Origin: Minisyncoccota bacterium
Lineage (GTDB): Bacteria > Patescibacteriota > Minisyncoccia > Minisyncoccales > CG1-02-41-26
Length of the DNA stretch: 64,000 nt
NCBI GenBank assembly: GCA_028718785.1
Contig: JAQULB010000002.1
Span: 20,750 to 84,749, forward strand
Direction: 5' to 3'
The notes beneath the pieces are model-generated. The model was not told the DNA's origin, made no database searches, and was given only the letters and a program-made list of their open reading frames with translations. Of the stretch, positions 1,151 through 57,903 are shown piece after piece (the first letter of the stretch is position 1; each line of letters opens with the position of its first letter). A program made the position numbers and the translations under genes.

Positions 1151-2206
1151 ATGCAGTGGAGATATATTCCAATTTTTTGGGTTTTGTTTGCAGTAATTTT
1201 TTTAATGGCTGGTTTTTTTATTTTTTCAAAAGAATCAACTTTTTCTGTTTTATCAGCTCGCATTGATCGGCCAATTCAAAAAAATCAAATAACACAACCA
1301 ATTGTTTTAATGGCAGTGGGAGACATTATGCTTGATAGGGGAGTTAAATATATGGTTGATAAATACGGCAATGGCGATTTTAATTTTGTTTTTAATGGAA
1401 TTAAAGATTACTTAAACAAGGCGGATATTCTTTTTGGCAATTTAGAAGGACCAATTTCCAACAGAGGAGTTAGGGTGGGCAGTATTTATTCTTTTCGGTT
1501 TTCACCAACATCAACCTTGGCTCTAAAAGAGGCGGGATTTGATATTTTATCAATTGCTAATAATCATATGTTTGATTACCAAGCAATTGCTTTGGGAGAC
1601 ACAATGGCTAATTTGCAAAAATCCGGCATTGATTATGTTGGAGCAGGCAATAATGAAACAGAAGCCTTTAGTTTAAAAGTAAAAGAAATACAAGGGGTTA
1701 AATTTGGGTTTTTGGCTTTTGAAAATTTGGGACATGAAAGCTGGAAAGCTGGCGGGCCCGCCCAAAGCCCTGCGGGCAATGAGGCGGGCGGGGACAAAAC
1801 TGGAATGGCTTGGGTTGGTTGGGGTGATTTTGATGAGGTAAAGGAAACAATTGCTCAAAGCAAACAGCAAGTGGATATTTTGGTTGTTTCTTTGCATGCG
1901 GGAGTTGAATATCAAACATTACCCGATGATTTTCAAATTGCGTTTGACAAAATGGCAATTGACTCTGGGGCGGATTTGGTAGTTGGCCACCACCCGCACG
2001 TTATCGAGCCCTTAGAAAAACATAACAACGGCTGGATAATTTACTCTTTGGGTAATTTTATTTTTGACCAGTATTTTTCACCCCAAACAATGGAAGGAGG
2101 ACTTTTGAAAGTGGAAATTGTTGATAAAAAAATTAGCAATGTTATTTTAGAAAAAGTAAAATTAAATAAATACTACCAGCCCATTTTATTATCCACAAAA
2201 CTTTAG
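1151..2206 (+). CDS. CapA/PGA-cap family metallophosphatase
   Basis: Motifs MAVGDIMLDRG, GNLEGP, SIANNHxxD, HAGVEY, GHHPH. N-terminal TM anchor. Carries a GC-rich in-frame insert at 1757-1788. Confidence 0.75.
   Translation: MQWRYIPIFWVLFAVIFLMAGFFIFSKESTFSVLSARIDRPIQKNQITQPIVLMAVGDIMLDRGVKYMVDKYGNGDFNFVFNGIKDYLNKADILFGNLEGPISNRGVRVGSIYSFRFSPTSTLALKEAGFDILSIANNHMFDYQAIALGDTMANLQKSGIDYVGAGNNETEAFSLKVKEIQGVKFGFLAFENLGHESWKAGGPAQSPAGNEAGGDKTGMAWVGWGDFDEVKETIAQSKQQVDILVVSLHAGVEYQTLPDDFQIAFDKMAIDSGADLVVGHHPHVIEPLEKHNNGWIIYSLGNFIFDQYFSPQTMEGGLLKVEIVDKKISNVILEKVKLNKYYQPILLSTKL
1757..1788. repeat. 32-nt GC-rich hairpin element CCCGCC-N20-GGCGGG, copy 1 (in-frame in capA-like gene)
   Basis: cccgcccaaagccctgcgggcaatgaggcggg, encoding PAQSPAGNEAG. 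Near-identical copies at 6585 and 28078. Confidence 0.85.
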
Positions 2207-3629: not shown

Positions 3630-3636
3630 TTTTTTA

Positions 3637-4003
3637 GTGGAGATGGAGAGATTGAACTCTCGTCCAAAAACAACTTACCTAACAATACTACAAGCTTAGT
3701 TAATTTAAAAGTTTAAAGGCCTAAAATATAAAAATTAACAAAATTTTTAGGTCTCGATCCCAAATTTTTCAGCAAATAGTTTGGGAGGGCTATTTGCCAA
3801 TCCTAATAATTTGTCACCTTGTTCTGTTTATTAGAAATCAACAGGCAAGATGGCCGCGACTTAAAGCCGGGCAGGCCTACGCTACTGCGTAAGCTGGTTG
3901 TGCGTATGTGTATGTTGCACTTATGTTTTTCCAAAAGTTTTTCGAGATTCTGGAGCTCGGCTTGCTCATTAAATAACTCATTCTTGTCAAAACATGCACC
4001 CCC
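3637..4003 (-). ncRNA. ssrA: tmRNA (SsrA)
   Basis: On the minus strand the 5' GGGGGUG pairs with the 3' CAUCUCC-A, including a G3:U pair. T-arm is GGACGAGAGUUCAAUCUCUCC. An internal tag frame reads ...ATYTYAQPAYAVA-stop. smpB is adjacent. Confidence 0.85.
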
Positions 4004-4054: not shown

Positions 4055-4507
4055 TTAAAAATGCTTCAAAGTTCTTTCAATTTCTCTGTTTGCTTCCCTG
4101 GTTTTTATCTTTTCTCGTTTATCTGCTTTGCGTTTGCCTTTACATAAGGCAAACTCTATCTTTACTTTACCCTTGTGATTATACACTTTTAAGGGCACCA
4201 TAGTCAACCCCTTTTGCTTATTTTTGCTGATTAACTCGCTAATTTCGGATTTTTGCAAAAGAAGTTTTCTGGTTCGCTTTGGCTCGTATTCTCCATAAAT
4301 ATTATTTGGCTGATAGGGTGGAACGTCGGCATTTAACAAAAAAACTTCGTTTTCTTTTAAAACAACAAAACTTCCTGCCAAGCTAATGCGCCCGTTTTTG
4401 ATTGACTTTACTTCTTGGCCGTTTAAAACAATGCCTGCCTGATACTTCTCTATTATTTCGTAGTCAAAAAGCGCTTTTCTATTTTCTGCTAATACACTGC
4501 CGTTCAT
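4055..4507 (-). CDS. smpB: SsrA-binding protein SmpB
   Basis: ENRKALFDYEI, GQEVKSIK, LLLQKSEI and a basic C-terminal tail; sits next to ssrA. Confidence 0.9.
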   Translation of the reverse strand: MNGSVLAENRKALFDYEIIEKYQAGIVLNGQEVKSIKNGRISLAGSFVVLKENEVFLLNADVPPYQPNNIYGEYEPKRTRKLLLQKSEISELISKNKQKGLTMVPLKVYNHKGKVKIEFALCKGKRKADKREKIKTREANREIERTLKHF

Positions 4508-5435: not shown

Positions 5436-7112
5436 ATGCTGAAAAAAGAAATTGAAAATTTAATTGAAGGGGCTACTGGCAAAAAAGCAATCGTGGAAAC
5501 GCCGGATAATTTTAGTTATGGAGATTTTTCAACTAATGTGGCGATTAGAGAAAAGCTAAACGCACAGGAGGTTGTCGACAAATTGAAAGCGAGTCCCTTA
5601 TTTGAGAAAATAAAGGTTATTAATGGGTTTATAAATTTTTTTCTAAAGCCAGAATATTTTTTAGAAAATTTAAAGCAAATTTTAAAACAAAAAGAAAAAT
5701 ACGGCTCTTCAAGTATTGGCAAGGGCAAAACTATTGTTATTGATTATTCAGCCCCCAATATTGCCAAGCCCTTTGGCATTGGGCATTTGCGATCAACCAT
5801 AATTGGCCAGGCCATTTACAATTTATATAAATTTTTGGGCTACAAAACTATTGGCGACAATCACTTAGGGGATTGGGGCACACAATTTGGAAAATTGATT
5901 TATAAACTCAAAACTCAAAATTCAAAACTCACAGCATTGACTGTTGAGGATTTAGAAAAGTTATATGTGGAGTTTCACAAAGAGGCAGAGCAGAACCCTG
6001 CTTTAAATGATGAGGCAAGGGCTTGGTTTAAAAAATTAGAACAGGGCGATAAAAAAGCCAAAGAAATTTGGCAGGCCTGTAAAGAGATTTCTTTAAAAGA
6101 ATTTGATAGAATTTACAATTTGCTTGGGGTAAAAATTGACAATGTTTTAGGTGAGAGTTTTTACCAAGATAAAATGCAAGATATTTTTGAGGAAATGAAA
6201 AAGAAAAACTTAACCAAGCAAAATGAGGGCGCTTGGGTGGTGGAGTTTGAAAACAATGTTTTGCCAAGTTTAGTTTTAATGAAATCAGATGGCGCTACCA
6301 CTTACTTTTTGCGGGATTTGGCCACAATTAAGTATAGATTAAAAAAATGGAAGCCAGATATTATCGCTTATGAGGTTGGGGTTGATCAGTCGCTACACTT
6401 TAAACAATTATTTAAAACTATTGAAATGCTTGGCTGGGCTAAAAATGTTTGTTTTGAGCATATTGTTCATGGGTTGATGCGCTCAAAAAATGGCAAGTTT
6501 TCAACCAGAAAGGGAGATACAATTCATTTAGAATATGTGTTGCAAGAGGCTATTAGCAAAGCAAGCGATTTGATAAGGGAAAAACCCGCCGAAAGCCCTG
6601 TGGGCAATCAGGCGGGCAAGGGAAAAAATGAATTAGCCAAGCAAATTGGCATTGGAGCTGTAAAGTATAATGATTTAAGCCAGCATCATTCTCGGGATAT
6701 TGTTTTTGATTGGGATAAAATTATAAACTTAAAAGGCAATTCTGGCCCGTATTTACAGTATGCGTTTGCTCGCACCCAGAGCGTTTTAGAAAAAGCCAAC
6801 GGCAACCGGGTTGCCGTAAGCTCTAAAATTGATTTTAATGAGTTGGGCGAAATTGAAAAAACGCTTTTAAAAAAACTTTTGCATTTTAGTGAAATTATTG
6901 AACAAGCAACCAAAACCTTTTCACCAAACTTAATTTGCAATTATATTTTTGATTTAGCGCAAAGCTTTAATTTGTTTTACAATGAAGTTCCAATTTTAAA
7001 AGCCGATACCAAAGAACAAAAAGAATTTCGCTTAGCTTTAACGTTTGCCGTGGGCCAAATTATCAAAAATGGCTTAACTCTTTTGGGTATTGAGTCGCCA
7101 AATAAAATGTAA
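5436..7112 (+). CDS. argS: arginyl-tRNA synthetase
   Basis: SAPNIAKPFGIGHLRST (HIGH region) plus catalytic core and DALR anticodon-binding C-terminus. Contains repeat inserts at 5904 and 6585. Confidence 0.9.
   Translation: MLKKEIENLIEGATGKKAIVETPDNFSYGDFSTNVAIREKLNAQEVVDKLKASPLFEKIKVINGFINFFLKPEYFLENLKQILKQKEKYGSSSIGKGKTIVIDYSAPNIAKPFGIGHLRSTIIGQAIYNLYKFLGYKTIGDNHLGDWGTQFGKLIYKLKTQNSKLTALTVEDLEKLYVEFHKEAEQNPALNDEARAWFKKLEQGDKKAKEIWQACKEISLKEFDRIYNLLGVKIDNVLGESFYQDKMQDIFEEMKKKNLTKQNEGAWVVEFENNVLPSLVLMKSDGATTYFLRDLATIKYRLKKWKPDIIAYEVGVDQSLHFKQLFKTIEMLGWAKNVCFEHIVHGLMRSKNGKFSTRKGDTIHLEYVLQEAISKASDLIREKPAESPVGNQAGKGKNELAKQIGIGAVKYNDLSQHHSRDIVFDWDKIINLKGNSGPYLQYAFARTQSVLEKANGNRVAVSSKIDFNELGEIEKTLLKKLLHFSEIIEQATKTFSPNLICNYIFDLAQSFNLFYNEVPILKADTKEQKEFRLALTFAVGQIIKNGLTLLGIESPNKM
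5904..5931. repeat. heptamer tandem repeat inside argS (aaactca x2, aaattca, aaactca)
   Basis: Four 7-bp units, translated as KLKTQNSKLT. Confidence 0.8.
6585..6616. repeat. 32-nt CCCGCC-N20-GGCGGG element, copy 2 (in-frame in argS)
   Basis: cccgccgaaagccctgtgggcaatcaggcggg, encoding PAESPVGNQAG; 29/32 identical to copy 1. Confidence 0.85.
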
Positions 7113-9491: not shown

Positions 9492-12400
9492 ATGGAAAAT
9501 GATTTTGTAAAAAAAGAAAAAGAGATATTAAAGTTTTGGGAGGATATTGGACTCTTGGAAAAGCTGAAAGAAAAAAATACCCTTCAGCATACTCAGGGCA
9601 GGGGCAAACCGTGGAGTTTTTTAGATGGCCCAATCACCGCCAACAATCCAATGGGCGTTCATCACGCCTGGGGAAGAACATATAAGGACTTATTTCAAAG
9701 GTTTAAATCAATGCAAGGGTTTAGCGAAAGATTTCAAAATGGGTTTGATTGCCAAGGGCTTTGGGTGGAAGTGGAAGTGGAAAAAGAGCTTGGCTTTAAA
9801 AATAAAAAAGATATTGAAAAATACGGCATTGCTAATTTTGTGAACAAATGCAAAGAACGGGTGCATAAATATTCAAAAATTCAAACCCAACAATCCATAA
9901 GATTGGGTATGTTGCGGGATTGGGGCAACTGGCAAACTGAGTTTGATGAAAAAGGCGAGTGGATGCAAAAAGCCCACTCTTATTACACAATGTCTCCTGA
10001 AAATAATTATGCTATTTGGCATTTTTTAAAAAAATGTCACGAAAAAGGGCTTTTATACAAAGGCCATGATGTGGTGGCTTGGTGTCCAAGGTGCGGCACA
10101 GCTATAAGTCAGCATGAAATCTTAACTGAAGAATATAAAGAAATAACCCACAAAGCAATTTATTTTAAACTGCCGGTTGTTGGAGAAAACGACACTTACT
10201 TTTTGGCTTGGACAACTACTCCCTGGACATTACCCGCCAATGTTTTTTTATCAGTTAATCCAGAATTTATTTACGCAAAAATAGCTGACCCAAAAACTGG
10301 CGAGATTTATATTTTATTAAAAGACAAAGCCAGCTTAATTGAAAATGGTCAAATTTTAGAAACATTTAAAGGTAAAGCATTAGAAGATAAAAAATACATT
10401 GGACTTTTTGATGAGCTACCTGCTGTGAAGGAGGCATTAAAAAATTATCAACATAAAGTTATTTTATGGAAGGATGTTACAGCTGAAGAAGGCACAGGGG
10501 TTGTGCATTCTGCTCCGGGGTGTGGGCAAGAAGATTTTGTTTTGGGGAAAGAACGGGAGTTGCCTGTTATTAATCCCACCAACGATGAAAGCTGTTACAT
10601 TGATGGTTTTGGTGAGTTAACAGGGCATTTTGTGGGTAAAGAACTTGTGAGAGATTTTATTTTTGAAAATTTAAAAGCCAAAAATTTGGTTTACGAAATA
10701 GAGGATTACACTCATAGGTACCCAACTTGTTGGAGATGTAAAAGTGAGCTGATTTTTCGCTTGGTTGACGAATGGTATATAGCGATGACAAAGTCATCGA
10801 ATTCAAAAATCAAAATTCAAAAATCAAAAAAAATAGAAGAAGACCTGAGAGGTGAGTTAATGAAATCGGTTAAGAAAATAAACTGGATGCCAGGGTTTTG
10901 TTTGGAAAGAGAGCTTGATTGGTTAAAGAATATGCATGATTGGCTTATTTCTAAAAAAAGATATTGGGGCTTGGCTTTGCCGATTTATGAATGCTCTGAA
11001 TGCAAAAATTTTGAGGTTATTGGCTCAAAAGAAGAATTGCAAAAAAGAGCGATTGAGGGTTGGGAGGAATTTGAAGGCAATTCTCCCCACAGGCCCTGGA
11101 TTGATAAAATAAAAATAAGATGCTCAAAATGTAACGCTGTTGTTAGCCGAATTTTTGATGTTGGCAACCCGTGGCTGGATGCAGGCATTGTGCCATTTTC
11201 AACTATTAGCGATGATAACAGGCACGAAAATATTCCATATTTTCATAACAATAAAAAAGAGTGGGACAAGTGGTTTCCTATTGATTTGGTTTGTGAAAGT
11301 TTTCCCGGGCAGTTTAAGAATTGGTTTTATGTTTTATTGGTAATGAGTCAGGTTTTAGAAAACAAAACTCCTTTTAAAAATTTATTGGGGTTTGCTTCAG
11401 TGGTGGATGAAAAGGGTGAGGAAATGCATAAATCCAAAGGCAATGCTATTTGGTTTGACGAGGCAGTGGAAAAAATTGGAGCTGATGTGATGCGCTGGAT
11501 GTATGTTACGCAAAACCCAGCAAATAATATGCGATTTGGCTACAATGTGGCTAAAGAAACTGAAAGAAAAATTTTAACCCTAACTAATTGTGTTAAGTTT
11601 TTTGAAACATACGCAGACAAATCAAAAATCAAAAATCAAAATTCAAAAATACAAATTCAAAATTCAAAAAACATTCTAGACAAATGGATAATATCTAAAT
11701 TGAATAATTTAATAAAAGAGGCAACTGAAAGTTTGGAAAAATTTGATCCAATGAAGGTCTGTTTGGCAATTGAAAGTTTTTGGATCAATGATTTGTCGCT
11801 TTGGTATTTGAGGCGTTCTCGAAAAAGATTTCAAAGCTCTGAAAACCCAGAAGACAGAGAGCAAGGAGAGCAAGTTTTTTATGAAGTTTTGTTAACAATT
11901 TGCAAGTTAATTGGGCCATTTATGCCATTTTTAGCTGAAGATATTTATCAGCAGTTAAAAAGTAAGGATATGCCAGAGTCAGCGCATTTGTGTGATTGGC
12001 CCAAGGAAAACAAAAAATTTATTGACCAAAGTTTAGAAAAAGAAATGCAAGAGGTTCGAGAAGTTGTTTCTTTGGCTTTAGCTAAAAGAGCGGAGGTTGG
12101 TATTGGGGTAAGGCAAGCGCTCGCTTCGCTTAAAATTCGAAATCCGAAATTCGAAATCCGAAACAAAGAGGAATTTTTAGCTTTAATAAAAGATGAAGTA
12201 AATGTGAAAGAGATTGTTTTTGATGAGAAAATTAAAGACGAAATTGAGCTGGATACAGAGATTTCAGAAGAGCTAAAAAAAGAAGGGCTTATTAGGGAAA
12301 TTATTAGAAACATTCAAAGCTTAAGAAAAAAAGCAGGTTTAACTCCAAACGACGCAGACATTGTGATTAACTATTTTGCTGGCGAAAAAATAGTTAAAGT

Positions 12401-12614
12401 TTTAAAAGAAAACCAAAAACAAATTTTAGAAAGCACTCGTTCAAAAGAAATAAAAGAAATCAAAGAAAGACAACCTGTCCGCAATGCTTCGCCCGTCAAC
12501 AACGCTTCGCGTAGCGATGCGGGCTGGCATAGCGATGCGGGCGGGGGAGAATTTTTGGCCCAATCTGAATTCAAAATAGATGAGGAATCGGCTTGGTTTG
12601 GGTTAGGAAAATAG
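9492..12614 (+). CDS. ileS: isoleucyl-tRNA synthetase
   Basis: PMGVHHAWGRT (HIGH-type), MHKSKGN (KMSKS-type), CP1 editing domain and Cys pairs. Carries three heptamer tracts and a GC-rich C-terminal tract. Confidence 0.95.
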   Translation: MENDFVKKEKEILKFWEDIGLLEKLKEKNTLQHTQGRGKPWSFLDGPITANNPMGVHHAWGRTYKDLFQRFKSMQGFSERFQNGFDCQGLWVEVEVEKELGFKNKKDIEKYGIANFVNKCKERVHKYSKIQTQQSIRLGMLRDWGNWQTEFDEKGEWMQKAHSYYTMSPENNYAIWHFLKKCHEKGLLYKGHDVVAWCPRCGTAISQHEILTEEYKEITHKAIYFKLPVVGENDTYFLAWTTTPWTLPANVFLSVNPEFIYAKIADPKTGEIYILLKDKASLIENGQILETFKGKALEDKKYIGLFDELPAVKEALKNYQHKVILWKDVTAEEGTGVVHSAPGCGQEDFVLGKERELPVINPTNDESCYIDGFGELTGHFVGKELVRDFIFENLKAKNLVYEIEDYTHRYPTCWRCKSELIFRLVDEWYIAMTKSSNSKIKIQKSKKIEEDLRGELMKSVKKINWMPGFCLERELDWLKNMHDWLISKKRYWGLALPIYECSECKNFEVIGSKEELQKRAIEGWEEFEGNSPHRPWIDKIKIRCSKCNAVVSRIFDVGNPWLDAGIVPFSTISDDNRHENIPYFHNNKKEWDKWFPIDLVCESFPGQFKNWFYVLLVMSQVLENKTPFKNLLGFASVVDEKGEEMHKSKGNAIWFDEAVEKIGADVMRWMYVTQNPANNMRFGYNVAKETERKILTLTNCVKFFETYADKSKIKNQNSKIQIQNSKNILDKWIISKLNNLIKEATESLEKFDPMKVCLAIESFWINDLSLWYLRRSRKRFQSSENPEDREQGEQVFYEVLLTICKLIGPFMPFLAEDIYQQLKSKDMPESAHLCDWPKENKKFIDQSLEKEMQEVREVVSLALAKRAEVGIGVRQALASLKIRNPKFEIRNKEEFLALIKDEVNVKEIVFDEKIKDEIELDTEISEELKKEGLIREIIRNIQSLRKKAGLTPNDADIVINYFAGEKIVKVLKENQKQILESTRSKEIKEIKERQPVRNASPVNNASRSDAGWHSDAGGGEFLAQSEFKIDEESAWFGLGK
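10801..10828. repeat. heptamer tandem repeat inside ileS (attcaaa/aatcaaa x4)
   Basis: Read directly; encodes NSKIKIQKSKK. Confidence 0.85.
11619..11667. repeat. heptamer tandem repeat inside ileS (aaatcaa x3, aattcaa, aaataca, aattcaa x2)
   Basis: Seven 7-bp units; encodes KSKIKNQNSKIQIQNSK. Confidence 0.85.
12133..12160. repeat. heptamer tandem repeat inside ileS (aaattcg/aaatccg x4)
   Basis: Encodes KIRNPKFEIRNK. Confidence 0.85.
12474..12548. repeat. GC-rich internally repetitive tract in the ileS C-terminal region
   Basis: ...aatgcttcgcccgtcaacaacgcttcgcgtagcgatgcgggctggcatagcgatgcgggcggggg. Direct sub-repeats (tagcgatgcgggc x2) and complementary cgcttcgc/gcgatgcg. Encodes PVRNASPVNNASRSDAGWHSDAGGG. 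Confidence 0.75.
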
Positions 12615-17560: not shown

Positions 17561-18232
17561 ATGAAAAGAGAATTTAGTAAAAACGATTTTTTTACCCAAA
17601 AAGCCAAAGAACAGGGCTATCCAGCCCGTTCGGTTTATAAGCTTCAAGAAATAGATGAAAAATTTAATCTCTTGCAAAAGGGCTTTTTTGTTTTAGATTT
17701 GGGAGCGGCCCCTGGGTCTTGGCTTTTGTATATTGCCAATAAAGTTTCAATGACTGGGAAAGCGGTGGGGGTGGATATTTTAGATTTAAATACAGAATTA
17801 CCCAGCAACGCAATCTTTGTTAAAAAGAGTGTTTTAGACACCGATTTTTTAGAAAGCGGAGCCCTGGGGTCCGCCAATTTTAATGTGGTGGTTTCAGACA
17901 TGGCCCCAAACACAACCGGACTTCGCGAGGTTGATGTGGCTAATTGCTTGGAGCTAACCCAAAAGGCCTTGGAAATCGCCAAAGAGGTTTTAGTTGGGGG
18001 TGGCCTTGCCACGCCGAAGCCGAGCGAAGCCCGCCTTCGCCCTAGCGGGCTTCGGCGAGGCGAAGGCGGGGATTTTGTTTGTAAAATTTTTGAAGGTCCT
18101 GGCACTGACAATTTTGTGAAAGAAACAAAAAAATATTTTAAAATGGTAAAAAGATATCGTCCCAGAGCTGTTCGGCGTGGTAGCAAAGAATTTTACCTCA
18201 TCGCCAAAGGATTTAAGGGCAGTAAAATTTGA
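17561..18232 (+). CDS. rlmE: 23S rRNA U2552 2'-O-methyltransferase RlmE (FtsJ)
   Basis: GYPARSVYKLQEID, VLDLGAAPGSW, VVSDMAPNTTG, KIFEG. A GC-rich insert splits the GGxF motif. Confidence 0.85.
   Translation: MKREFSKNDFFTQKAKEQGYPARSVYKLQEIDEKFNLLQKGFFVLDLGAAPGSWLLYIANKVSMTGKAVGVDILDLNTELPSNAIFVKKSVLDTDFLESGALGSANFNVVVSDMAPNTTGLREVDVANCLELTQKALEIAKEVLVGGGLATPKPSEARLRPSGLRRGEGGDFVCKIFEGPGTDNFVKETKKYFKMVKRYRPRAVRRGSKEFYLIAKGFKGSKI
18001..18071. repeat. GC-rich structured insert in rlmE
   Basis: Two interleaved complementary pairs: cgccgaagcc (18012-18021) with ggcttcggcg (18048-18057), and cccgccttcgcc (18030-18041) with ggcgaaggcggg (18059-18070). Encodes LATPKPSEARLRPSGLRRGEG. Confidence 0.8.
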
Positions 18233-25695: not shown

Positions 25696-27165
25696 ATGAC
25701 AGAAAAAAATAATAAAATTTATTTAACGACTCCTATCTACTATGTCAACTCAGTTGCTCATCTCGGGCATGCTTACACTACTTTAGCAATTGATGTTTTA
25801 ACTCGCTATTACCGGGAGCTGGGAAAAGACGTTTTCTTTTTAACTGGCACAGATGAGCATGGCGCTAAAATTTTTGAGGCCGCTCAAAAAGCAGGCAAAA
25901 CTCCTCAAGGGTTTTGTGATGAAGTTTCAAGTTTATTTAAAAAAGCGTGGGGAAATTTAAATATTGGCTACTCTTATTTTATAAGAACAACCGATAAAAA
26001 CCACGAGGAAAAGGTGGCTGAATTTCTAACTATATTAAAAGACAAGGGCTTTTTATACGAGGGAGAATATGCTGGCAAATATTGCGTGGGCTGTGAAAAG
26101 TTTGTGACAGAAAAAGATTTGGTTGATGGCAAATGCCCTGACCACAAATGCGAGCCCCAAGATGTGGCTGAGGAAAATTGGTTTTTTAAATTAAGGCAAT
26201 TGTTGCCAAAAATTCAAGAACTTATTGAAAGCGATAAAATATTAATAAGGCCAGAAAACGCCAAAAGCGAAGTTTTGGGCGTTATAAAACAAGGGATTGA
26301 CGATATTTCAATTTCTCGCAAAAATGTTTCTTGGGGAATAAAATTGCCTTGGGATGAAAGCCAAACAATTTATGTGTGGGTGGACGCTTTGCTTAATTAT
26401 TGGACTGTTTTGCAAAACTTTAATAAAACTGAATTTTGGCCAGCAGATTTGCATTTGGTGGGTAGAGATATTTTAAAGTTTCATTGTATTATGTGGCCAG
26501 CCCTATTGCTTGCTTATTATAAGGAGGGCGCTATTGACCAGTTGCCAAAACAGATTTTTTGCCACGGATATTTTACAATTGATGGGCAAAAAATGTCCAA
26601 AACAATTGGCAATGTAATTGATCCAAATAATTTAATAAAAAAATACGGGATTGACGCCACCAGATATTTGCTTTTAACCCAGTTTCCATTTGGCAATGAT
26701 GGAGATGTTTCGCTTGGTCGATTAGATGAAAAATATAATAGCGATTTAGCGAGCGGATTGGGAAACCTCACTGCAAGGGTGATCACTCTTGCGAGGAAAT
26801 CAAACATCAAAAATCAAACATCAAAAATAAAAATTAAAAGTCAAAAAGTAAAACAAGCTATCTTGGAGGCAAAAAATAAGCATAACTTTAGTTTGGCTTT
26901 GGAAAATTTAAAAATTGATGAAGCATTGGGGGCTGTTTGGGAGTTGATCGGGGCTTGTGATAAAATAATTGATACCGAAAAACCATGGGAGGTGACAGAT
27001 CAAAAATCAAAAATTAAAAATCAAAAGGTTATTGAAGATTTATTGTTGGCTTTGCAGGAAATCGCAGAGTTATTGAAGCCGTTTATGCCCCAAACCGCAG
27101 AGAAAATTACAGGGCAAATCAAAACCGGTAAAAGCGAACCGCTTTTCCCCCGCCTTAATTTTTAA
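25696..27165 (+). CDS. metG: methionyl-tRNA synthetase
   Basis: TPIYYVNSVAHLGHAYT (HIGH), KMSKTIGN (KMSKS) and Zn knuckle CVGCEKF...CPDH. Start set at the ATG (the track start is GTG at 25678). Confidence 0.9.
   Translation: MTEKNNKIYLTTPIYYVNSVAHLGHAYTTLAIDVLTRYYRELGKDVFFLTGTDEHGAKIFEAAQKAGKTPQGFCDEVSSLFKKAWGNLNIGYSYFIRTTDKNHEEKVAEFLTILKDKGFLYEGEYAGKYCVGCEKFVTEKDLVDGKCPDHKCEPQDVAEENWFFKLRQLLPKIQELIESDKILIRPENAKSEVLGVIKQGIDDISISRKNVSWGIKLPWDESQTIYVWVDALLNYWTVLQNFNKTEFWPADLHLVGRDILKFHCIMWPALLLAYYKEGAIDQLPKQIFCHGYFTIDGQKMSKTIGNVIDPNNLIKKYGIDATRYLLLTQFPFGNDGDVSLGRLDEKYNSDLASGLGNLTARVITLARKSNIKNQTSKIKIKSQKVKQAILEAKNKHNFSLALENLKIDEALGAVWELIGACDKIIDTEKPWEVTDQKSKIKNQKVIEDLLLALQEIAELLKPFMPQTAEKITGQIKTGKSEPLFPRLNF
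26800..26855. repeat. heptamer tandem repeat inside metG (tcaaaca/tcaaaaa...)
   Basis: About 8 units of 7 bp; encodes NIKNQTSKIKIKSQKVKQ. Confidence 0.8.
27000..27027. repeat. heptamer tandem repeat inside metG (tcaaaaa x2, ttaaaaa, tcaaaag)
   Basis: Encodes DQKSKIKNQK. Confidence 0.8.
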
Positions 27166-27169
27166 TTTT

Positions 27170-27949
27170 ATGTATATTGATACTCACGCGCATTTAGATG
27201 TGGAGCAATATGACAGCGATAGGGAGCAAGTGATTAAAAACGCCATAAAAAATGGCGTTGGTTTTATTGTTAACCCCAGTTTTGATCTACAAAGCGCCAA
27301 AAAAGCCATTGACTTAGCAAATAAATATGAAAATATTTTTGCTGGTGTTGGGTGCCATCCAAAAACAAGAGAAGAAAGCGGATATGTTTTTAATAAAAAA
27401 GATTATTTAAAAATTATTGGAAACAAAAAAGTGGTGGCTGTTGGGGAGTGTGGCTTGGAATTAGCAAGTTCTAAGATTCCAGAGGGGCAGAAACAAGAAT
27501 TATTAAAACACCAAAAAGAAATTTTTGTTGAGCAAATAAATTTGGCAAAAGAATTTAATTTGCCAATAATTGTGCATTGTCGTAATACCCATAAAGAGGT
27601 TATTGAAATTTTATCAAAAGAAAATAATTTACAAGGAGTTATCCATTGTTTTTCGGGCTCTTGGGGGGATGCTCAAAAATATTTAGAAATGGGGATTTAT
27701 ATTTCGTTTACTGGCATTATTACTTATGCAAACGACTACGATAAAGTGGTAAAAAATACGCCATTGGATAGAATTTTAATTGAAACTGATTGCCCGTATT
27801 TATCGCCTGTTCCGTTGAAGGGGCAAAGAAATGAGCCAGCCAATGTTAAATATGTAGCTCAAAGAATTGCAGAGATTAAGGGGGAGCCATTAGAAAGAGT
27901 TGCTGATATAACCACCCAAAACGCTAAAAAACTCTTTAATTTAAGTTGA
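27170..27949 (+). CDS. tatD: TatD-family metal-dependent hydrolase/DNase
   Basis: IDTHAHLD, GECGLE, HCR, ETDCPYL. Confidence 0.85.
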   Translation: MYIDTHAHLDVEQYDSDREQVIKNAIKNGVGFIVNPSFDLQSAKKAIDLANKYENIFAGVGCHPKTREESGYVFNKKDYLKIIGNKKVVAVGECGLELASSKIPEGQKQELLKHQKEIFVEQINLAKEFNLPIIVHCRNTHKEVIEILSKENNLQGVIHCFSGSWGDAQKYLEMGIYISFTGIITYANDYDKVVKNTPLDRILIETDCPYLSPVPLKGQRNEPANVKYVAQRIAEIKGEPLERVADITTQNAKKLFNLS

Positions 27950-27972
27950 TTTTGGCGTACAATATAACATTT

Positions 27973-30360
27973 ATGGCAGAACAAGAAAAAAAATACGAGC
28001 CAAATAAAATTGAGCCCAAGTGGCAGAAATATTGGGAGAAGGAAGGGTTAAACAGGGCAAAGGACTTTGACAAAAATCCCGCCCAAAGTGCTACGCATAA
28101 TGAGGCGGGCAGGCCAAAGTTTTATTGTTTGGATATGTTCCCATACCCCTCTGGCGCTGGATTGCATGTGGGCCATCCTAAGGGCTACACTGCCACTGAT
28201 ATTATTTCTCGCTATAAGAGAATGAATGGCTTTAATGTATTTCATCCAATTGGCTGGGACGCTTTTGGCTTACCAGCAGAAAACTATGCCATTAAAACCA
28301 AAGTCCACCCCAATGAAAGCACGCATAAAAATATAGCTCATTTCAAAGAGCAGATTAAGTCATTGGGGTTTTCTTATGATTGGGAAAGAGAAATAGACAC
28401 CTCGTCACCCGAGTATTACAAATGGACGCAATGGTTTTTTCTTTTTCTTTACAAAAATGGCTGGGCATACAAAGCAAAAGCAGCCGTTAATTGGTGCGAT
28501 TCCTGCCAAACAGTTTTAGCCAACGAGCAAGCGCAAGATGGAAAATGTGAAAGATGCTCTAGCAATGTTTTACAAAAAGATTTGGAGCAGTGGTTTTTTA
28601 AAATAACTGATTTTAGCGAGGAGTTATTAGCTGGCTTGGATAAGATTGATTGGCCAGAACCAATTAAAATAATGCAAAAAAATTGGATCGGCAAATCTGA
28701 AGGATATGAGATAGATTTTAACATAAAAAATAGTGTAACAAAGTTAGCCGATCGGCACAGTTTGTTACAGATTAGAGTTTTTACAACAAGGATAGATACA
28801 ATTTTTGGCTGTACTTATTTGGTAATAGCCCCTGAACACGAGATAGCCAAGAATCAAGAATTGGGAATTAAGAATTATGAAGAAGTAAAAGATTACGTTG
28901 AGACAGCGAAAAAGAAAAGCGAACGGGACAGGCAAGCTGATGTAAAAGATAAAACGGGCGTGAAGTTGGAAGGCGTTACGGCAATTAATCCAGCTAATGG
29001 AAAAGAAATTCCAATTTTTGTGGCTGATTATGTTTTATCAAGTTATGGCACGGGAGCAATAATGGCAGTTCCCGCTCAAGATGAAAGGGATTTTGAGTTT
29101 GCGAAAAAATTTAATTTGCCAATTGTTGAAGTTCCAAATTCTATGGAAATGGCAGAAAAAGGCATAGCAAAGAAAAAAATAAATTATAGATTAAGAGATT
29201 GGCTGGTTTCACGCCAGCGTTATTGGGGAGCTCCCATTCCCATTGTTTATTGCGAGAAATGCGGAGAGCAGGCAGTGCCAGAAAAAGATTTGCCGGTATT
29301 GCTGCCAACAGATGTTGATTTTATGCCAACAGGCGAATCGCCCTTGGTAAAATCAAAAGAATTCCATAAAGTTAAATGTCCAAAATGCGGCGGGCCAGCT
29401 AGGCGGGAAAGCGATACTATGGATACTTTTGTTTGTTCGTCTTGGTATTTTTTTCGCTATCTTGACCATAAAAATAAAAATGAATTTGCTGATAAAAAAT
29501 TAATTGATTATTGGCTACCAGTTGATTTGTATGTGGGCGGGGCGGAACATGCGGTTTTACATCTTTTATATGCTCGTTTTTTTGCTAAGGCGTTGAAAAG
29601 AATTAGCTTGATTGGCTTTGACGAACCATTTTTAAAGCTGAGAAATGTTGGTTTAATTCTGGCCGAAGGTGGAGTAAAAATGAGCAAATCAAAGGGCAAT
29701 GTTATAAACCCTGATGATATTGTTAAAGAATACGGCGCTGATACTTTAAGGATTTACGAAATGTTTATGGGGCCTTTTGACCAAGCTATTGCTTGGGATA
29801 CAAAAGGGGTTGGGGGGGCGAGAAGATTCTTAGACAGGATATATAAATTAAAAGAAAGAGTTTCTGCTAAGAGCAGTAATTTAGAGCTTGAAAAAGCAGT
29901 TAATAAAATAATTAAAAAAGTCGGGGAAGATATTGAACAGATGAAATTTAATACAGCCATTTCTTCGTTAATGATTTTGCTTAACGAAATGGAAGGGGAA
30001 GAAGAAATTTCGGGTGATATTTTTGAAAGGTTTTTATTGCTTTTAGCGCCTTTTGCCCCGCACATCGCTGAGGAGTTATATGAAGGATTCAAGATTCAAG
30101 ATTCAAGATTCAAGAATGGATCAATCTTTGAGCAAGAGTGGCCAAAGTACGATACCGCCTTACTAAAGGAGGAAAAAGTTAATATAGTGGTTCAAATAAG
30201 CGGCAAGGCAAGAGGAGTTGTGGAAGTTGAAACAGGTGCGAGCGAACAAGAGGTTTTAGATATAGTCAAAGCAGATTCAAAGATAAATAAATGGATAGAA
30301 GGGCAAAATATTAAAAAAGTCATTTTTATCCAAAATAAATTAATTAATCTAGTTTTATAG
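27973..30360 (+). CDS. leuS: leucyl-tRNA synthetase
   Basis: PYPSGAGLHVGHPKGY (HIGH), VKMSKSKGN (KMSKS), CP1 editing domain. Start placed at the ATG at 27973. Confidence 0.95.
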   Translation: MAEQEKKYEPNKIEPKWQKYWEKEGLNRAKDFDKNPAQSATHNEAGRPKFYCLDMFPYPSGAGLHVGHPKGYTATDIISRYKRMNGFNVFHPIGWDAFGLPAENYAIKTKVHPNESTHKNIAHFKEQIKSLGFSYDWEREIDTSSPEYYKWTQWFFLFLYKNGWAYKAKAAVNWCDSCQTVLANEQAQDGKCERCSSNVLQKDLEQWFFKITDFSEELLAGLDKIDWPEPIKIMQKNWIGKSEGYEIDFNIKNSVTKLADRHSLLQIRVFTTRIDTIFGCTYLVIAPEHEIAKNQELGIKNYEEVKDYVETAKKKSERDRQADVKDKTGVKLEGVTAINPANGKEIPIFVADYVLSSYGTGAIMAVPAQDERDFEFAKKFNLPIVEVPNSMEMAEKGIAKKKINYRLRDWLVSRQRYWGAPIPIVYCEKCGEQAVPEKDLPVLLPTDVDFMPTGESPLVKSKEFHKVKCPKCGGPARRESDTMDTFVCSSWYFFRYLDHKNKNEFADKKLIDYWLPVDLYVGGAEHAVLHLLYARFFAKALKRISLIGFDEPFLKLRNVGLILAEGGVKMSKSKGNVINPDDIVKEYGADTLRIYEMFMGPFDQAIAWDTKGVGGARRFLDRIYKLKERVSAKSSNLELEKAVNKIIKKVGEDIEQMKFNTAISSLMILLNEMEGEEEISGDIFERFLLLLAPFAPHIAEELYEGFKIQDSRFKNGSIFEQEWPKYDTALLKEEKVNIVVQISGKARGVVEVETGASEQEVLDIVKADSKINKWIEGQNIKKVIFIQNKLINLVL
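28078..28109. repeat. 32-nt CCCGCC-N20-GGCGGG element, copy 3 (in-frame in leuS)
   Basis: cccgcccaaagtgctacgcataatgaggcggg; encodes PAQSATHNEAG in the same codon phase as copies 1 and 2. Confidence 0.85.
28733..28770. repeat. GCCGATCGGC-core palindromic element (variant) in-frame in leuS
   Basis: gtgtaacaaagttagccgatcggcacagtttgttacag, with tgtaacaaa/tttgttaca arms. Encodes VTKLADRHSLLQ. Confidence 0.85.
30086..30113. repeat. heptamer tandem repeat inside leuS (gattcaa x4)
   Basis: Perfect 4x7 bp; encodes GFKIQDSRFKN. Confidence 0.9.
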
Positions 30361-36970: not shown

Positions 36971-39178
36971 CTAATAGTCGTTTTTCTTTAATTTTTCTAC
37001 GGCCTCAGATAACATTTGGCAGTATAGATTTAGGCCAATGCGGTTAACCGAGCCAGATTGCTCACGGCCCAAAATATTGCCTGCTCCTCGAATTTCCAAG
37101 TCCGCTTGCGCAATTTTGTATCCACTACCCAACTCTTCAGCTTGTTTTAAGGCAGTAAGTCGCTGTTTGGCCAAACCCTTTAAAGTATTTTTGGGATATA
37201 AAAAGTAGGCGTTGGCTTGGGTATTGCTTCGGCCAATCCGGCCTCGCAACTGATAGGCCTGGGCCAAGCCCAAGCGGGTGGCGTTGTCCACAATTAAAGT
37301 GTTGGCATTGGAAATATCTAATCCGTTTTCAATAATAGTGGTGGCTAAAAGCAAGTTAGTTTTTCCGGTTTGAAAATCGCTTAAGGCCTTTACAATTTCT
37401 TTGTCTGGCAGTTTGGCGTGCAAAACGCCAATTTTAACTTTTGATTTTTCTAACTCAAAGCGTATCAAAGTTGGCCGATCGGCACAGATTGACACACTTT
37501 TGGAAGATGGTTTTTTGTTAAGAAGTTCCTCTAACAAAAGCTTAAAGGCATTGATTGTTTCCACTCTGTTGTGCAAGAAATAAATTTGTCCGCCTCGTTT
37601 TAGTTCATTTTCAATAGCGTTTTTTATAACATCTTTTTTAAATGGTAAAATAAATGTCTTTACTGGTTTACGGCCTTGGGGAGGAGTTTGAATAAAGCTG
37701 ATTTCTTTTAAAGACGACAAAGCCAAGTAAAGAGTGCGGGGGATTGGCGTGGCCGAAAGATAAAGAATGTCAATTGAGGGATTTGTTGTTCTTAATTTTT
37801 CTTTTTGTTTAACACCAAACCTTTGCTCATCATCAATGATTAAAAGTCCCAAGTTTTTAAATTCAATATTTTTAGCTAAAACGCTATGGGTGGCAATCAA
37901 AATATCCACGTTGCCATCTTTTAAGCCCTGTAGAATTTTGGGTTTTTCGTTTTTGTTTTGAAGCCGTGAAAGTAAAGCTACTTTTACGGGCAAGCCAGTT
38001 AGCCGTTTCTGAAAAGTATTAAAATGTTGGGTGGCCAAAATGGTGGTGGGGCACATAATTACTGCTTGCTTGCTGTTTTCAGCAGCCAATGTGGCTGCCC
38101 TTAAAGCCACTTCGGTTTTGCCAAAACCAACATCCCCGCAAATTATGCGGTCAATGGGTTTTTGTTTGCTAAAATCGTTTTCAATTTCGTTTAAACACTG
38201 GGATTGGTCTGGGGTTAAAGTATAAGGAAAAGTGGCCTCTAATTTTTCGTAAATTTCTGTTTTGCTGTATGCGGGTCTAGTGGCAAGTTCCTTTAAAGCA
38301 AACATTTCCAAAAGTTCTTTGGCAAATTTTTCAGCGTCTTCTTTTATTTTATATTTTGTTTTTTGCCAAAATATACCTCCAAGCCGGGATAATTTTGGCT
38401 CAACAAAACCAAGATATCGCGTTAGCTTTCTCTCAAGCCCAACAGGCACAAAAAGTTTGTCTCCTTGGGCGTATTCTAAAACATAGTATTCTTTGGCTGG
38501 CGAAGTGGCGGAAACCTTTTCAGGGTACGCTTGTTCGCCCAGCGCGCTCACTCGCTCCTGTCCTCGGCTCGCTCTCTCACTATGTTCGAACCCTGCCCGC
38601 TCGCCTGCGGATGCCCCTGAAAAGGTTTCTGCCACTTCGCTTTCTTGAACCGTTTGTATTTCTAAGAATCGGGAGATGCCGTGGTCAAGGTGTACTAAAT
38701 AATCCCCGGTTTTTAGGCCTTTTAAATCGCTAAAGATTTTTTGGGATTTTAATTTCTTTTTTAAAACATTTTTGGCGGTTTCTTCGTTGGTTATTTCAAT
38801 TGGCAGTTTTTCGATTGTTTCAATGGTGTTGCCTAAAAAATCTAAACGAAAAGCAAAAAAGGAGTTAATGGGGAAAATTTCCACAACTCCTCCAATTTGA
38901 GAAAATTCGCCTGGCTCGGTTATTTTGAAAACTTTTTCATAGCCCATTTCATCAATTTTTTTTAAAACTTCAGAAATGTTTATTTTTTGATTTGCTTCTA
39001 AAAATAAAGTATTGTCTTGCCAAAAGGCCTGGGTTTTTTGAGATTTTTTAATATGGCTTAAATTTTCTGTAAACCAAAGAATTTCTTTTTCAAGAAAGTA
39101 GGGGGTGATACTAACAATTAAAGCGCTTTGGAGCGCTTTTTTACTTGCTAAATCCATATTATGGTTATAGTATGGCAA
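36971..39178 (-). CDS. mfd: transcription-repair coupling factor Mfd (short N-terminus)
   Basis: RNAP-interacting domain LVHLDHGI...KLFVPV, helicase motifs GDVGFGKTEVA, DDEQRFGV, RGRIGR. Carries two repeat inserts. Confidence 0.9.
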   Translation of the reverse strand: MPYYNHNMDLASKKALQSALIVSITPYFLEKEILWFTENLSHIKKSQKTQAFWQDNTLFLEANQKINISEVLKKIDEMGYEKVFKITEPGEFSQIGGVVEIFPINSFFAFRLDFLGNTIETIEKLPIEITNEETAKNVLKKKLKSQKIFSDLKGLKTGDYLVHLDHGISRFLEIQTVQESEVAETFSGASAGERAGFEHSERASRGQERVSALGEQAYPEKVSATSPAKEYYVLEYAQGDKLFVPVGLERKLTRYLGFVEPKLSRLGGIFWQKTKYKIKEDAEKFAKELLEMFALKELATRPAYSKTEIYEKLEATFPYTLTPDQSQCLNEIENDFSKQKPIDRIICGDVGFGKTEVALRAATLAAENSKQAVIMCPTTILATQHFNTFQKRLTGLPVKVALLSRLQNKNEKPKILQGLKDGNVDILIATHSVLAKNIEFKNLGLLIIDDEQRFGVKQKEKLRTTNPSIDILYLSATPIPRTLYLALSSLKEISFIQTPPQGRKPVKTFILPFKKDVIKNAIENELKRGGQIYFLHNRVETINAFKLLLEELLNKKPSSKSVSICADRPTLIRFELEKSKVKIGVLHAKLPDKEIVKALSDFQTGKTNLLLATTIIENGLDISNANTLIVDNATRLGLAQAYQLRGRIGRSNTQANAYFLYPKNTLKGLAKQRLTALKQAEELGSGYKIAQADLEIRGAGNILGREQSGSVNRIGLNLYCQMLSEAVEKLKKNDY
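37457..37500. repeat. GTGTCAA..GCCGATCGGC..TTGACAC palindromic element in-frame in mfd
   Basis: aaagcgtatcaaagttggccgatcggcacagattgacacacttt is about 95% identical to the 57214-57259 copy. Encodes (minus strand) SVSICADRPTLIRF. Confidence 0.9.
38500..38640. mobile_element. 141-bp MITE-like GC-rich element with 26-bp terminal inverted repeats, in-frame in mfd
   Basis: gcgaagtggcggaaaccttttcaggg (38500-38525) against cccctgaaaaggtttctgccacttcgc (38614-38640). Length 141 = 47 codons. Encodes ...ETFSGASAGERAGFEHSERASRGQERVSALGEQAYPEKVSATSP... Confidence 0.8.
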
Positions 39179-42322: not shown

Positions 42323-42637
42323 ATGGATTGTATTTTTTGCAAAATAGTTAATAAGGAACTGCCAGCGGATATTGTGTATGAAAATGAAAATGTTTTGGCG
42401 TTTAAAGATATTCACCCCAAAGCAGCTGTCCACATTTTAGTAGTTCCAAAAATTCATATTGAGTCAATAAACTCTGAAAATTCAGAAAACATTGTTGGGG
42501 ACTTGATTTTAGCGGCTAAAAATATTATAAAGAGAGATAACATCACAGGATATAAATTACTTTTTAATATTGGAAGAGAGGGCGGGCAAATGGTTGATCA
42601 TTTGCATATGCATCTTTTAGCAGGAAACCCCAGTTAA
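42323..42637 (+). CDS. HIT-family (histidine triad) nucleotide hydrolase
   Basis: CIFCKI...; HLHMHLL histidine triad. Confidence 0.85.
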   Translation: MDCIFCKIVNKELPADIVYENENVLAFKDIHPKAAVHILVVPKIHIESINSENSENIVGDLILAAKNIIKRDNITGYKLLFNIGREGGQMVDHLHMHLLAGNPS

Positions 42638-42760
42638 ACAGCTCCCTGAGGTCGTTTAACACTCGGAGCCACCCCAGTTGAATCCGCCCTTAGGCGGTGT
42701 TTCGCAGAAAGCGAAACAATTTAACGGGGTATAAGAACTTCTAAATTCATTCGTGGCTAA
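42626..42760. repeat. ccccagttaaac...gtttaacgggg hairpin element with nested ~60-nt insertion (upstream of rpsU)
   Basis: Shares accccagttaaacagctccYtgaggtcg ... ttaacggggtRtaag..ctNNtaaattc with 53248-53325. Overlaps the HIT stop codon. Confidence 0.8.
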
Positions 42761-53186: not shown

Positions 53187-53247
53187 TTTTTAAATTAGAA
53201 ATTAAGTCATTAAAAATTATTTAAAAATTAAAAATTATTTTACGAAG

Positions 53248-53325
53248 TTACCCCAGTTAAACAGCTCCTTGAGGTCGCGTTTAACGGGGTGTAAGTTCTC
53301 GTAAATTCGTTTCACTCATTAACGA
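53248..53325. repeat. compact copy of the ccccagttaaac...gtttaacgggg hairpin element (upstream of clpB)
   Basis: accccagttaaacagctccttgaggtcgcgtttaacggggtgtaagttctcgtaaattcg; an 11-bp stem with one bulge. Confidence 0.8.
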
Positions 53326-57213: not shown

Positions 57214-57259
57214 AAAAGCGTGTCAAAGTTGGCCGATCGGCACGGATTGACACACTTTT
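57214..57259. repeat. GTGTCAA..GCCGATCGGC..TTGACAC element, left flank of PaaX-like module 2
   Basis: aaaagcgtgtcaaagttggccgatcggcacggattgacacactttt, 42 nt upstream of the ATG. Confidence 0.9.
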
Positions 57260-57300: not shown

Positions 57301-57903
57301 ATGAAGTATTCTTTCCAACAAAAGAAAAGGTCTGTCACTTATAAACTTTTCAGCAAAGGCATAGACGCAACAACCCATATTTTATTAGCCTTGTATGAAA
57401 ATACCCAGTTAGCTAGAGAAGGTTTTCTTAGAGGTTGCCCTCAATATTCTGGTTTTGGATTAGCAAGAGCGGTATTTGGGAAAGATAGTTATCCACAGCC
57501 CAAAAAAGAAGCAATCCGTACCGATCTTTCTCGTTTGCAAAAAGAAGGTTTGATAAAAAAAGACCCAAAACAAAAAATTTATTACTTAACTGATAAGGGA
57601 AAAGAACTTGTAAGCTACATCGAAAATCGTTTTTTAATTTTACAAGAACCTTGGGATAAAAAGTTTCGTGTTGTTATTTTTGATGTGCCAGAAAAGAAAA
57701 GATATTGGAGAGTTTTCTTAAAAAGAGAGTTAGAATTAATGCAATTTCAACAACTCCAAAAAAGTGTTTACATTGGCAAGTATCCTTTGCCAGCAAGCTT
57801 GATAAAAGAAATAGAGGCCGATAATATGGGGGAGTTTGTTTATATTTTTACAGCGGAGAATATTGACAGGCAAGATGAGATTTTAAAAATGCTAAATGAA
57901 TAG
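57301..57903 (+). CDS. PaaX-family protein: wHTH + Cas2-like central domain (paralog 2)
   Basis: LSRLQKEGLIKKD...LTDKGKE (wHTH), then PWDKKFRVVIFDVPEKKR...LQKSVYIGKYP. Homologous to 7761-8318. Confidence 0.7.
   Translation: MKYSFQQKKRSVTYKLFSKGIDATTHILLALYENTQLAREGFLRGCPQYSGFGLARAVFGKDSYPQPKKEAIRTDLSRLQKEGLIKKDPKQKIYYLTDKGKELVSYIENRFLILQEPWDKKFRVVIFDVPEKKRYWRVFLKRELELMQFQQLQKSVYIGKYPLPASLIKEIEADNMGEFVYIFTAENIDRQDEILKMLNE

Follow-up and report, generated by a model that had tools for sequence, protein, structure and literature searches.

Why should a short GC-rich hairpin recur, in the same codon phase, in three unrelated genes of an AT-rich genome? The question is raised by a stretch of 64,000 nt from a Minisyncoccota bacterium (Patescibacteriota; GenBank assembly GCA_028718785.1, contig JAQULB010000002.1, positions 20,750 to 84,749), to which we refer as the window. 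Its GC content is 32-39%, and its genes are ordinary housekeeping genes with best matches in the Patescibacteria, or candidate phyla radiation (CPR), whose genomes are about 1 Mb in size and contain few recognised mobile elements. An earlier reading of this DNA, termed here the original prediction, had described a 32-nt element, CCCGCC-N20-GGCGGG, in a capA-like gene, argS, and leuS. It was interpreted as a mobile mini-element akin to the Rickettsia palindromic elements (RPEs) and retained as surface loops or, alternatively, as a hairpin with a role at the RNA level. The sequence comparisons reported here lead us to regard it as probably a non-autonomous, translated palindromic mini-repeat, similar to RPEs and to repetitive extragenic palindromes (REPs), that multiplies as DNA in Patescibacteria genomes. 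The three copies in the window, which we assign to family A, are listed below; scores refer to a covariance model that was built from 23 copies and searched over the window.

1757-1792, + strand: family A copy 1, core CCCGCCCAAAGCCCTGCGGGCAATGAGGCGGGC followed by a GGG codon; in frame in the PGA_cap (CapA-like) gene at 1151-2206; peptide PAQSPAGNEAG-G; 56.7 bits
6585-6620, + strand: family A copy 2, core CCCGCCGAAAGCCCTGTGGGCAATCAGGCGGGC followed by AAG; in frame in the arginyl-tRNA synthetase (ArgRS) gene at 5436-7112; peptide PAESPVGNQAG-K; 55.3 bits
28078-28113, + strand: family A copy 3, core CCCGCCCAAAGTGCTACGCATAATGAGGCGGGC followed by AGG; in frame in the leucyl-tRNA synthetase (LeuRS) gene at 27946-30360; peptide PAQSATHNEAG-R; 52.1 bits

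The positions of these exact copies, their hosts, their peptide pattern, and their common phase, since each opens at codon position 1 of a long open reading frame (ORF), agree with the original prediction. The motif CCCGCC-N20-GGCGGG matches the window 3 times, whereas 0.00 matches are expected from 100 dinucleotide-preserving shuffles. The repeat is thus real, but its length had to be revised. Position 33 is a C or T that closes a Gly codon, and the codon that follows the core has the form RRG, with G in the third position, in 35 of 44 independent copies, as opposed to 16% of comparable codons of the window's genes (p about 1e-19). Since the RRG codon is conserved after the Gly codon, the conserved unit consists of the 33-nt core and this codon, i.e., 36 nt or 12 codons. 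According to the column composition of the 44 independent copies, the unit begins with CCCGCC and ends with GGCGGGY-RRG, and it encodes the consensus PA[EQ]SPx[DG]N[QE]AG[KEGR], a small, polar, Pro/Ala/Gly-rich peptide. The 6-bp terminal inverted repeats that had been noted are present, but the hairpin has further inner pairing. Family A copies have the common fold ((((((((..((((...))))..)).)))))). with energies of -17 to -20 kcal/mol and z-scores of -3.1 to -3.8; it comprises a 6-bp GC outer stem, a bulged A26, and two further pairs (7-25 and 8-24), beyond which lie a 2x2 AA/AA internal loop, an inner stem of 4 bp, and a loop of 3 nt. The inner stem of copy 3, GUGC/GCAU, is compensatory with respect to those of copies 1 and 2. 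Searches of Rfam with the whole window, together with a sensitive local scan, gave no match to the element and recovered only the RNA genes of the window, namely, transfer-messenger RNA (tmRNA) and one tRNA. On inspection of the fold, an archaeal bulge-helix-bulge intron, a tRNA-anticodon-like editing site, and a k-turn were rejected because their geometry does not fit.

How far does the unit extend beyond this window? Public collections were scanned with a pattern that fixes 19 of the 33 core positions and places no constraint on positions 7 and 25 or on the inner hairpin. We retrieved 28 loci in species-representative genomes, nearly all of them metagenome-assembled genomes (MAGs) of Patescibacteria (labelled Staskawiczbacteria, Harrisonbacteria, Berkelbacteria, Paceibacterota, Parcubacteria, and 'Saccharibacteria'), and 51 loci in metagenome contigs. 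Deduplication left 70 unique family-A-like copies, 51 of which lie on the sense strand and in frame 0 of ORFs of at least 100 amino acids; a few additional frame-0 copies are masked by overlapping or truncated ORFs. The hosts are about 35 unrelated proteins, and the insertion sites in them are protein tails, linkers, and loops, such as the C-terminal tail of NusA, linkers of trigger factor and FtsK, tails of type IV coupling proteins, and terminal extensions of the ribosomal proteins L7/L12, L19, and L21. Other hosts are H+-pyrophosphatase (H+-PPase), phosphoglycerate kinase (PGK), LepA, a succinyl-CoA-ligase-like protein, LTD-domain surface proteins, and a metallophosphatase. In the PGK gene (1483-2631 of locus L014), the family A unit (2383-2415, - strand) lies inside the conserved SHLG|RP motif (SHLGK-PAQIASQNEAG-RPTRK), which is surprisingly near the substrate site for a tolerated insert.

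The original prediction had also raised the question of intergenic copies and variants, and both were found. Three copies (L003, L027, and L030) are read through in frames other than 0, and non-coding copies occur in L028/L051, L009, L010, and L016. In the region 2681-2780 of L028 (identical in L051), the copy is followed by a second hairpin, TCCGCCAAAATGCGAAGCTTTTGGCGGA, and then by a reverse-complemented tRNA-Gly-like 5' half, which may be a tRNA gene interrupted in the anticodon loop or a pseudogene; ARAGORN and Rfam made no call for this fragment. In the region 2965-4509 of L009, the copy is found downstream of the 3' end of a 16S rRNA and of a match to a group II intron D1-D4 fragment, and upstream of tRNA-Ala, and is thus located inside an rRNA operon spacer or an intron remnant. 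Furthermore, REP-like tandem extragenic arrays of 3-7 copies, with a spacing that is not a multiple of three, are present in L054/L077 and L072 (L054, 440-730 and 1039-1075; L077, 216-487; L072, 340-640). The contigs with arrays have 61-67% GC, and their hairpins are spaced 38-60 nt apart, with additional 36-nt head-to-tail copies in L072. The family is therefore not confined to AT-rich Patescibacteria. The pattern scan of 2.9 M viral contigs (IMG/VR), GenBank phages, and PLSDB plasmids retrieved no copy of family A, and a phage or plasmid vector was rejected on this basis; one non-coding copy of family B, a related family described below, is located on a viral contig.

Did the host genes acquire this segment by insertion? 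The idea of a lineage-specific insertion, put forward in the original prediction, is borne out by two hosts. (i) None of 120 LeuRS homologues contains the segment, and the LeuRS of Thermus thermophilus aligns with an exact gap of 11 residues. The homologues P0077, P0024, and P0019 have different Pro/Ala/Gly/Arg-rich inserts at the same N-terminal loop (e.g., PLPSPRLRQAG), which suggests that other hairpin families have repeatedly landed in this loop. (ii) Among 120 NusA homologues that were picked by their conserved core only, blind to the tail, almost all, including those with 87-90% identity, have no element in the tail; the set contains one decayed copy (PAQNPADIEAG) and one family B copy. 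Since NusA relatives mostly have no element, the nine element-bearing NusA loci represent a subclade and not the rule. The proposed retention as surface loops likewise agrees with the data, as sites are tails, linkers, and loops. Copy 2 occupies a hypervariable inter-helix loop of ArgRS that precedes the anticodon-binding domain, and in an AlphaFold model of the ArgRS fragment, the insert falls between two helices and has a predicted local distance difference test (pLDDT) score of 71-74, compared with 95-96 for its neighbours.

Several observations concern the movement of copies between genes. A 63-nt identical block, composed of 11 nt, the core, and 19 nt, is present in two unrelated ORFs of one MAG, and trigger factor genes and an H+-PPase gene have in common a composite of 80-90 nt in which a 12-nt spacer separates an antisense-like relative (family E) from family A. 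In L008, both a family B unit and a third family break up a family A unit between nt 15 and 16, i.e., in the loop, and a family B pair in the isoleucyl-tRNA synthetase (IleRS) gene of the window has the same nested layout. In 20 of 44 independent copies, the codon before the core and the one after it begin with the same two bases, compared with 8.4 expected from permutation and 4-11 in adjacent-codon controls; this 2-nt junction signal may be a weak signature of a short target duplication or of microhomology. A 10-nt direct repeat around the ArgRS copy, AAGGGAAAAA, was also considered as a target duplication and was rejected, because its two occurrences are in different frames, 33+10 is not a multiple of 3, and REK/KGK codons account for it.

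ComEC, DprA, and RecO are encoded in the window, and the presence of the first two is consistent with a different origin of the motif, namely, as a DNA-uptake or recombination signal of the competence machinery that spreads by molecular drive, like the uptake signal sequences (USS) and DNA uptake sequences (DUS) of Pasteurellaceae and Neisseria. USS accumulate in permissive protein parts and in preferred frames, as the element does, and the conservation of the core across lineages and the failure to find a transposase could be explained in this way. We nevertheless judge an uptake signal to be very improbable for five reasons. (i) The density is low, with 4 copies in the 64 kb, all of them on one strand, or about 1 per 16 kb; (ii) copies have one orientation relative to genes and not both; (iii) a 36-nt insertion is beyond the reach of point-mutation drift; (iv) the inner stem covaries instead of having a fixed sequence; and (v) the transfer of blocks between unrelated genes requires illegitimate insertion anyway.

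Is the unit translated once it is inside a gene? All lengths are multiples of three (33+3, 36, and 66), there are no stop codons in the frame used, the variation at position 33 is only synonymous, and the copies in other frames are likewise open. The orientation of the element follows that of the host gene, even for genes on the minority strand of the contig, and the fraction of loci co-oriented with the majority strand (28 of 35) equals the 77% share of this strand in the coding length. Strand-specific insertion tied to replication was ruled out on these grounds; an orientation that follows the host gene is to be expected if translation is the filter. Taken together, lengths, open frames, and orientation fit selection through translation and speak against splicing or bypass. 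The latter would mean that the segment is lost, as a mini-intron or in the manner of the mitochondrial byp elements and T4 gene 60, before translation or in its course. In favour of this, byp elements are also GC-rich hairpins in an AT-rich genome, and one copy lies inside the conserved HLG|RP motif of PGK. Removal would, however, lift the constraints on frame and stop codons, yet the length of every family is a multiple of 3, 51 copies are open in frame 0, position 33 changes only synonymously, and the copies in other frames are open; in addition, no take-off/landing codon pair or stop codon is present. Splicing or bypass was thus rejected on the frame and stop-codon evidence, and we consider its probability close to negligible.

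Which molecule, then, is the object of the constraint? The columns left free by the scan are informative in this respect. Pair 7-25 occurs as G-C in 11 sequences, as C-G in 10, and as U-A in 1, and the pairs of the inner stem show 5-10 double changes each. Overall, 97.5% of cells pair, whereas the value is 86.2% after column shuffles and drops to 28-42% if the 3' partner is slid. The swap at 7/25 turns Q..E into E..Q in the peptide, which indicates that the constraint is on the nucleic acid and not on the protein. It could be argued that the 11-12-residue peptide PA[EQ]SPx[DG]N[QE]AG is a functional module, serving in modification, in recognition, or as a flexible linker, that has been recruited repeatedly and whose palindrome is incidental. 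The strong preference for one frame is in line with such a module, as is the fact that the peptide is always polar, Pro/Gly-rich, and in exposed regions. However, apart from the Q..E/E..Q exchange, changes in the inner stem alter the residues freely (SPAG, SATH, SPSD, and IASQ), so that conservation follows base pairing and not residues; the same DNA is also present in non-coding regions, in arrays that are out of frame, and in other reading frames; and most orthologues do not have it. A peptide module is therefore, in our opinion, highly unlikely.

A hairpin that acts in the host mRNAs would account for the base pairing more directly. Under this explanation, it could be bound by a conserved Patescibacteria protein, cause the ribosome to pause, or affect mRNA stability, and the peptide would be a by-product. 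Several features can be cited in its favour: the element is nearly always sense to the host gene, on either strand; its pairing is kept through compensatory changes; its unpaired A-rich positions, which the search pattern left free, are conserved in the three window copies; and the hosts are enriched in translation and transcription genes. However, this explanation predicts that G.U pairs are favoured over A.C mismatches, and no such preference was observed, with 10 G.U (G.T) versus 17 A.C overall and 8 versus 16 at free positions. Since G.T is no commoner than A.C, there is no sign that the sense RNA specifically is the selected structure; the G.U enrichment that would mark RNA-level selection was not found. 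Moreover, the element is patchy among close orthologues, with relatives of NusA and LeuRS that have none; no regulation is common to the hosts; antisense-like relatives (family E) and extragenic arrays exist; and no Rfam family matches. The role at the RNA level that had been offered as an alternative in the original prediction thus gains no support, and we regard it as improbable. Many of the mismatches are half-and-half chimeras of two subfamilies (e.g., GCCC..GGAC and GTCC..GGGC), which suggests that copies recombine at the loop. In NusA and trigger factor, the element was also measured to be more conserved than its flanks; as the pattern fixes 19 of 33 positions, this measure is biased and was not used as evidence.

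The patchy distribution, the block transfers, and the nesting are explained less well by these alternatives than by a mobile element. If the unit is such an element, new copies would arise via insertion of a DNA copy, and the hairpin, chiefly its loop, would be the site of breakage, insertion, recombination, and copy-to-copy conversion. Selection would then purge those insertions that break the frame or encode a harmful peptide, and the survivors would be sense-strand, frame-0 copies in permissive sites, read as a benign loop of Pro, Ala, Gly, Ser, Asn, and acidic residues. The pairing would be maintained for propagation or copy-to-copy conversion and not for the host protein, and persistence inside genes would be possible because the unit is 36 nt long.

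A number of observations weigh against this interpretation. (i) The core is nearly identical across deeply diverged Patescibacteria, which is unusual for a purely neutral passenger, although this near-identity is inflated because the scan pattern fixed 19 of the 33 positions. (ii) The bias toward sense and frame 0, with 51 copies versus a handful in other frames, needs strong selection, because at least one other frame (RRKSFGQSGG) looks tolerable. (iii) The exact boundaries, and likewise the duplication, have a statistical basis only. (iv) The ortholog alignments proposed in the original prediction gave a clean gap for LeuRS but no clean insertion for ArgRS; the ArgRS loop at the insertion site varies from 33 to 70 residues among homologues, and an insertion can therefore not be delimited. 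In addition, the relative P0144 (85% identical) starts beyond the site, so that an empty site is not readable in it. (v) No transposase, REP-associated tyrosine transposase (RAYT), reverse transcriptase, or similar protein was found in the window in a Pfam analysis of essentially all ORFs, nor were transposase- or RAYT-like genes found beside the arrays in L077, L072, and L050, which are genome fragments only. (vi) The absence from the viral, phage, and plasmid collections means that no vector is evident. On balance, the proposal of an RPE-like mobile mini-element is supported as far as sequence can show, whereas mobility and mechanism are inferred. A more far-reaching version, to which we give rather little credence, is that the hairpins form a Patescibacteria-wide, coding-adapted mobile system with dedicated machinery that targets hairpin loops, or else a sense-strand mRNA signal used by the host; in both cases, they would rank as a major and continuing source of the lineage-specific insertions found in essential CPR proteins, some of them within catalytic motifs (e.g., HLG|RP of PGK).

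Family A is accompanied by other palindromes in the window. The covariance model gave four strong hits, all on the + strand, the fourth of which, at 12492, belongs to family B, and a scan for stable local hairpins recovered a longer palindrome.

12474-12545, + strand: nested pair of 36-nt family B units, in frame in the C-terminal part of IleRS (9492-12614); 38.7 bits
18005-18070, + strand: 66-nt GC-rich composite palindrome, in frame in RlmE/FtsJ (17561-18232); -27.4 kcal/mol

The outer family B unit in IleRS is split into 12474-12491 and 12528-12545 by the inner unit at 12492-12527, CCCGTCAACAACGCTTCGCGTAGCGATGCGGGCTGG, and the pair is read as PVRNAS-PVNNASRSDAGW-HSDAGG. Outside the window, family B, which was defined from L022 and L008, reads CCTGCCCGCAATGCTTCGCRTAGCGATGCAGGCGGG and encodes PARNAS[HR]SDAGG. 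The RlmE palindrome corresponds to amino acids 149-170, LATPKPSEARLRPSGLRRGEGG, with the pairings CCCGCCTTCGCC/GGCGAAGGCGGG and GCCGAAGCC/GGCTTCGGC; E. coli FtsJ has no such segment, and the palindrome is a distinct family of the same kind.

Further repeats and features of the window were noted in passing. A second palindromic family of ~40 nt, TGTGTCAA-N5-GCCGATCGGC-N5-TTGACACA, is found at 57217-57256, 57902-57941, 28732-28771, and 37439-37501. Two of its members, one of them a perfect 40-nt palindrome, flank a gene for a PaaX-like winged helix-turn-helix and Cas2-like-domain protein (57301-57903), an arrangement that could be a repressor operator or REPtron-like. A diverged member is in frame in LeuRS (NSVTKLADRHSLLQ), with a 9-residue gap in the alignment with T. 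thermophilus LeuRS, and another is in frame inside an Mfd-like helicase, on the minus strand. Another repeat class that expands inside genes is represented by A-rich heptamer runs, (AAATCAA/AATTCAA)n, at 10779-10850, 11605-11683, 5905-5931, 26797-26861, 26989-27025, and 30086-30112, which lie within the coding sequences for IleRS, ArgRS, a MetRS-like protein, and LeuRS. A hairpin-forming 40-nt repeat with 85% identity (TTTTA..CCCCAGTTAAACAGCTCCYTGAGGTCG) is present at 42615-42654 and 53238-53277. This repeat, possibly an operator of a stress regulon, lies at the end of a HIT-family gene in one case and a short distance upstream of ClpB (53334) in the other. NrdD, the anaerobic ribonucleotide reductase (45986-49309), has a LAGLIDADG_3 match that spans residues 518-559, with the ATP-cone on one side and the catalytic domain on the other, and is probably an intein. 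Finally, the tmRNA gene (139.5 bits) adjoins smpB (3635-4003 and 4055-4507, both on the - strand), an ordinary arrangement that is unrelated to the repeat.

What would follow if the interpretation as a mobile element is correct? The family of 36-nt repeats has settled in the genes of aminoacyl-tRNA synthetases and ribosomal proteins, in those of NusA, trigger factor, and PGK, and in many other essential genes. On this interpretation, part of the lineage-specific insertions in CPR proteins would be explained, and the copies would serve as a natural chart of the places where conserved enzymes tolerate insertions, as well as a warning of selfish segments in the alignments, phylogenies, and gene calls of these genomes. 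It would also raise the question of what mobilises a 36-nt hairpin in genomes without a visible transposase, and the RPE phenomenon of Rickettsia would be extended to a second, very large branch of reduced-genome bacteria. No account of such elements in CPR/Patescibacteria was returned by full-text literature searches; noteworthy points are their lineage, their minimal size, their nesting, and the coexistence of several families.

How does the element compare with known systems? (i) Miniature transposable elements with terminal inverted repeats (MITEs) have a target-site duplication and measure 70-300 bp, compared with 36 nt here, where the only duplication-like signal is statistical and 2 nt long. 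(ii) USS and DUS are likewise short conserved motifs that are over-represented in permissive protein parts, in preferred frames, in naturally competent bacteria. However, they are fixed 9-12-nt sequences that occur about once per kb and arise from point mutation, whereas we observe a 36-nt insertion with a covarying stem. (iii) The mitochondrial GC clusters of yeast (var1) and the hairpin repeats of sponges and placozoans (e.g., PMC7813641) are, like the element, short GC-rich hairpins in AT-rich, gene-dense genomes that invade coding regions and insert into one another. They are organellar, and byp is skipped by the ribosome, in contrast to the element described here, which has signatures of translation. 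(iv) In-frame RPEs and intragenic REPs, including those in tRNA synthetase genes, have been reported, with intragenic REPs in Opitutus terrae, Rickettsia (RPE-4/6), Xanthomonas, and others (Di Nocera et al. 2013; PMC3733652). REPs resemble the element in being 20-40-nt GC-rich imperfect palindromes with a bulge that occur as singletons, dimers, and clusters, some of them inside tRNA synthetase genes. Unlike REPs, the 44 independent copies have no GTAG or CGTC tag at either end (in family B, GTAG/ATAG is internal and not terminal), and no RAYT was found in the window or beside the arrays, all of them genome fragments. Whereas REPs are mainly extragenic, the copies in Patescibacteria are mostly intragenic and in one frame; extragenic arrays are found in GC-rich contigs, and most copies in AT-rich Patescibacteria contigs are intragenic. 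(v) A close parallel is provided by the RPEs, of which RPE-1 measures about 100-150 bp; they were reportedly described by Ogata et al. in 2000 (cited in PMC3733652). Both are dispersed palindromic repeats of a reduced genome that are located in frame in many unrelated, seemingly functional housekeeping genes and translated as extra surface segments, and neither is known to have an associated transposase. The differences lie in the 36-nt unit, in the host lineage (Patescibacteria and not Alphaproteobacteria), and in the presence of several families nested within each other's loops; the distinction from RPE-1 is one of size. In functional terms, the element belongs with the RPEs, as it is a dispersed palindrome that is found in frame in unrelated open genes and is lacking in their orthologues.

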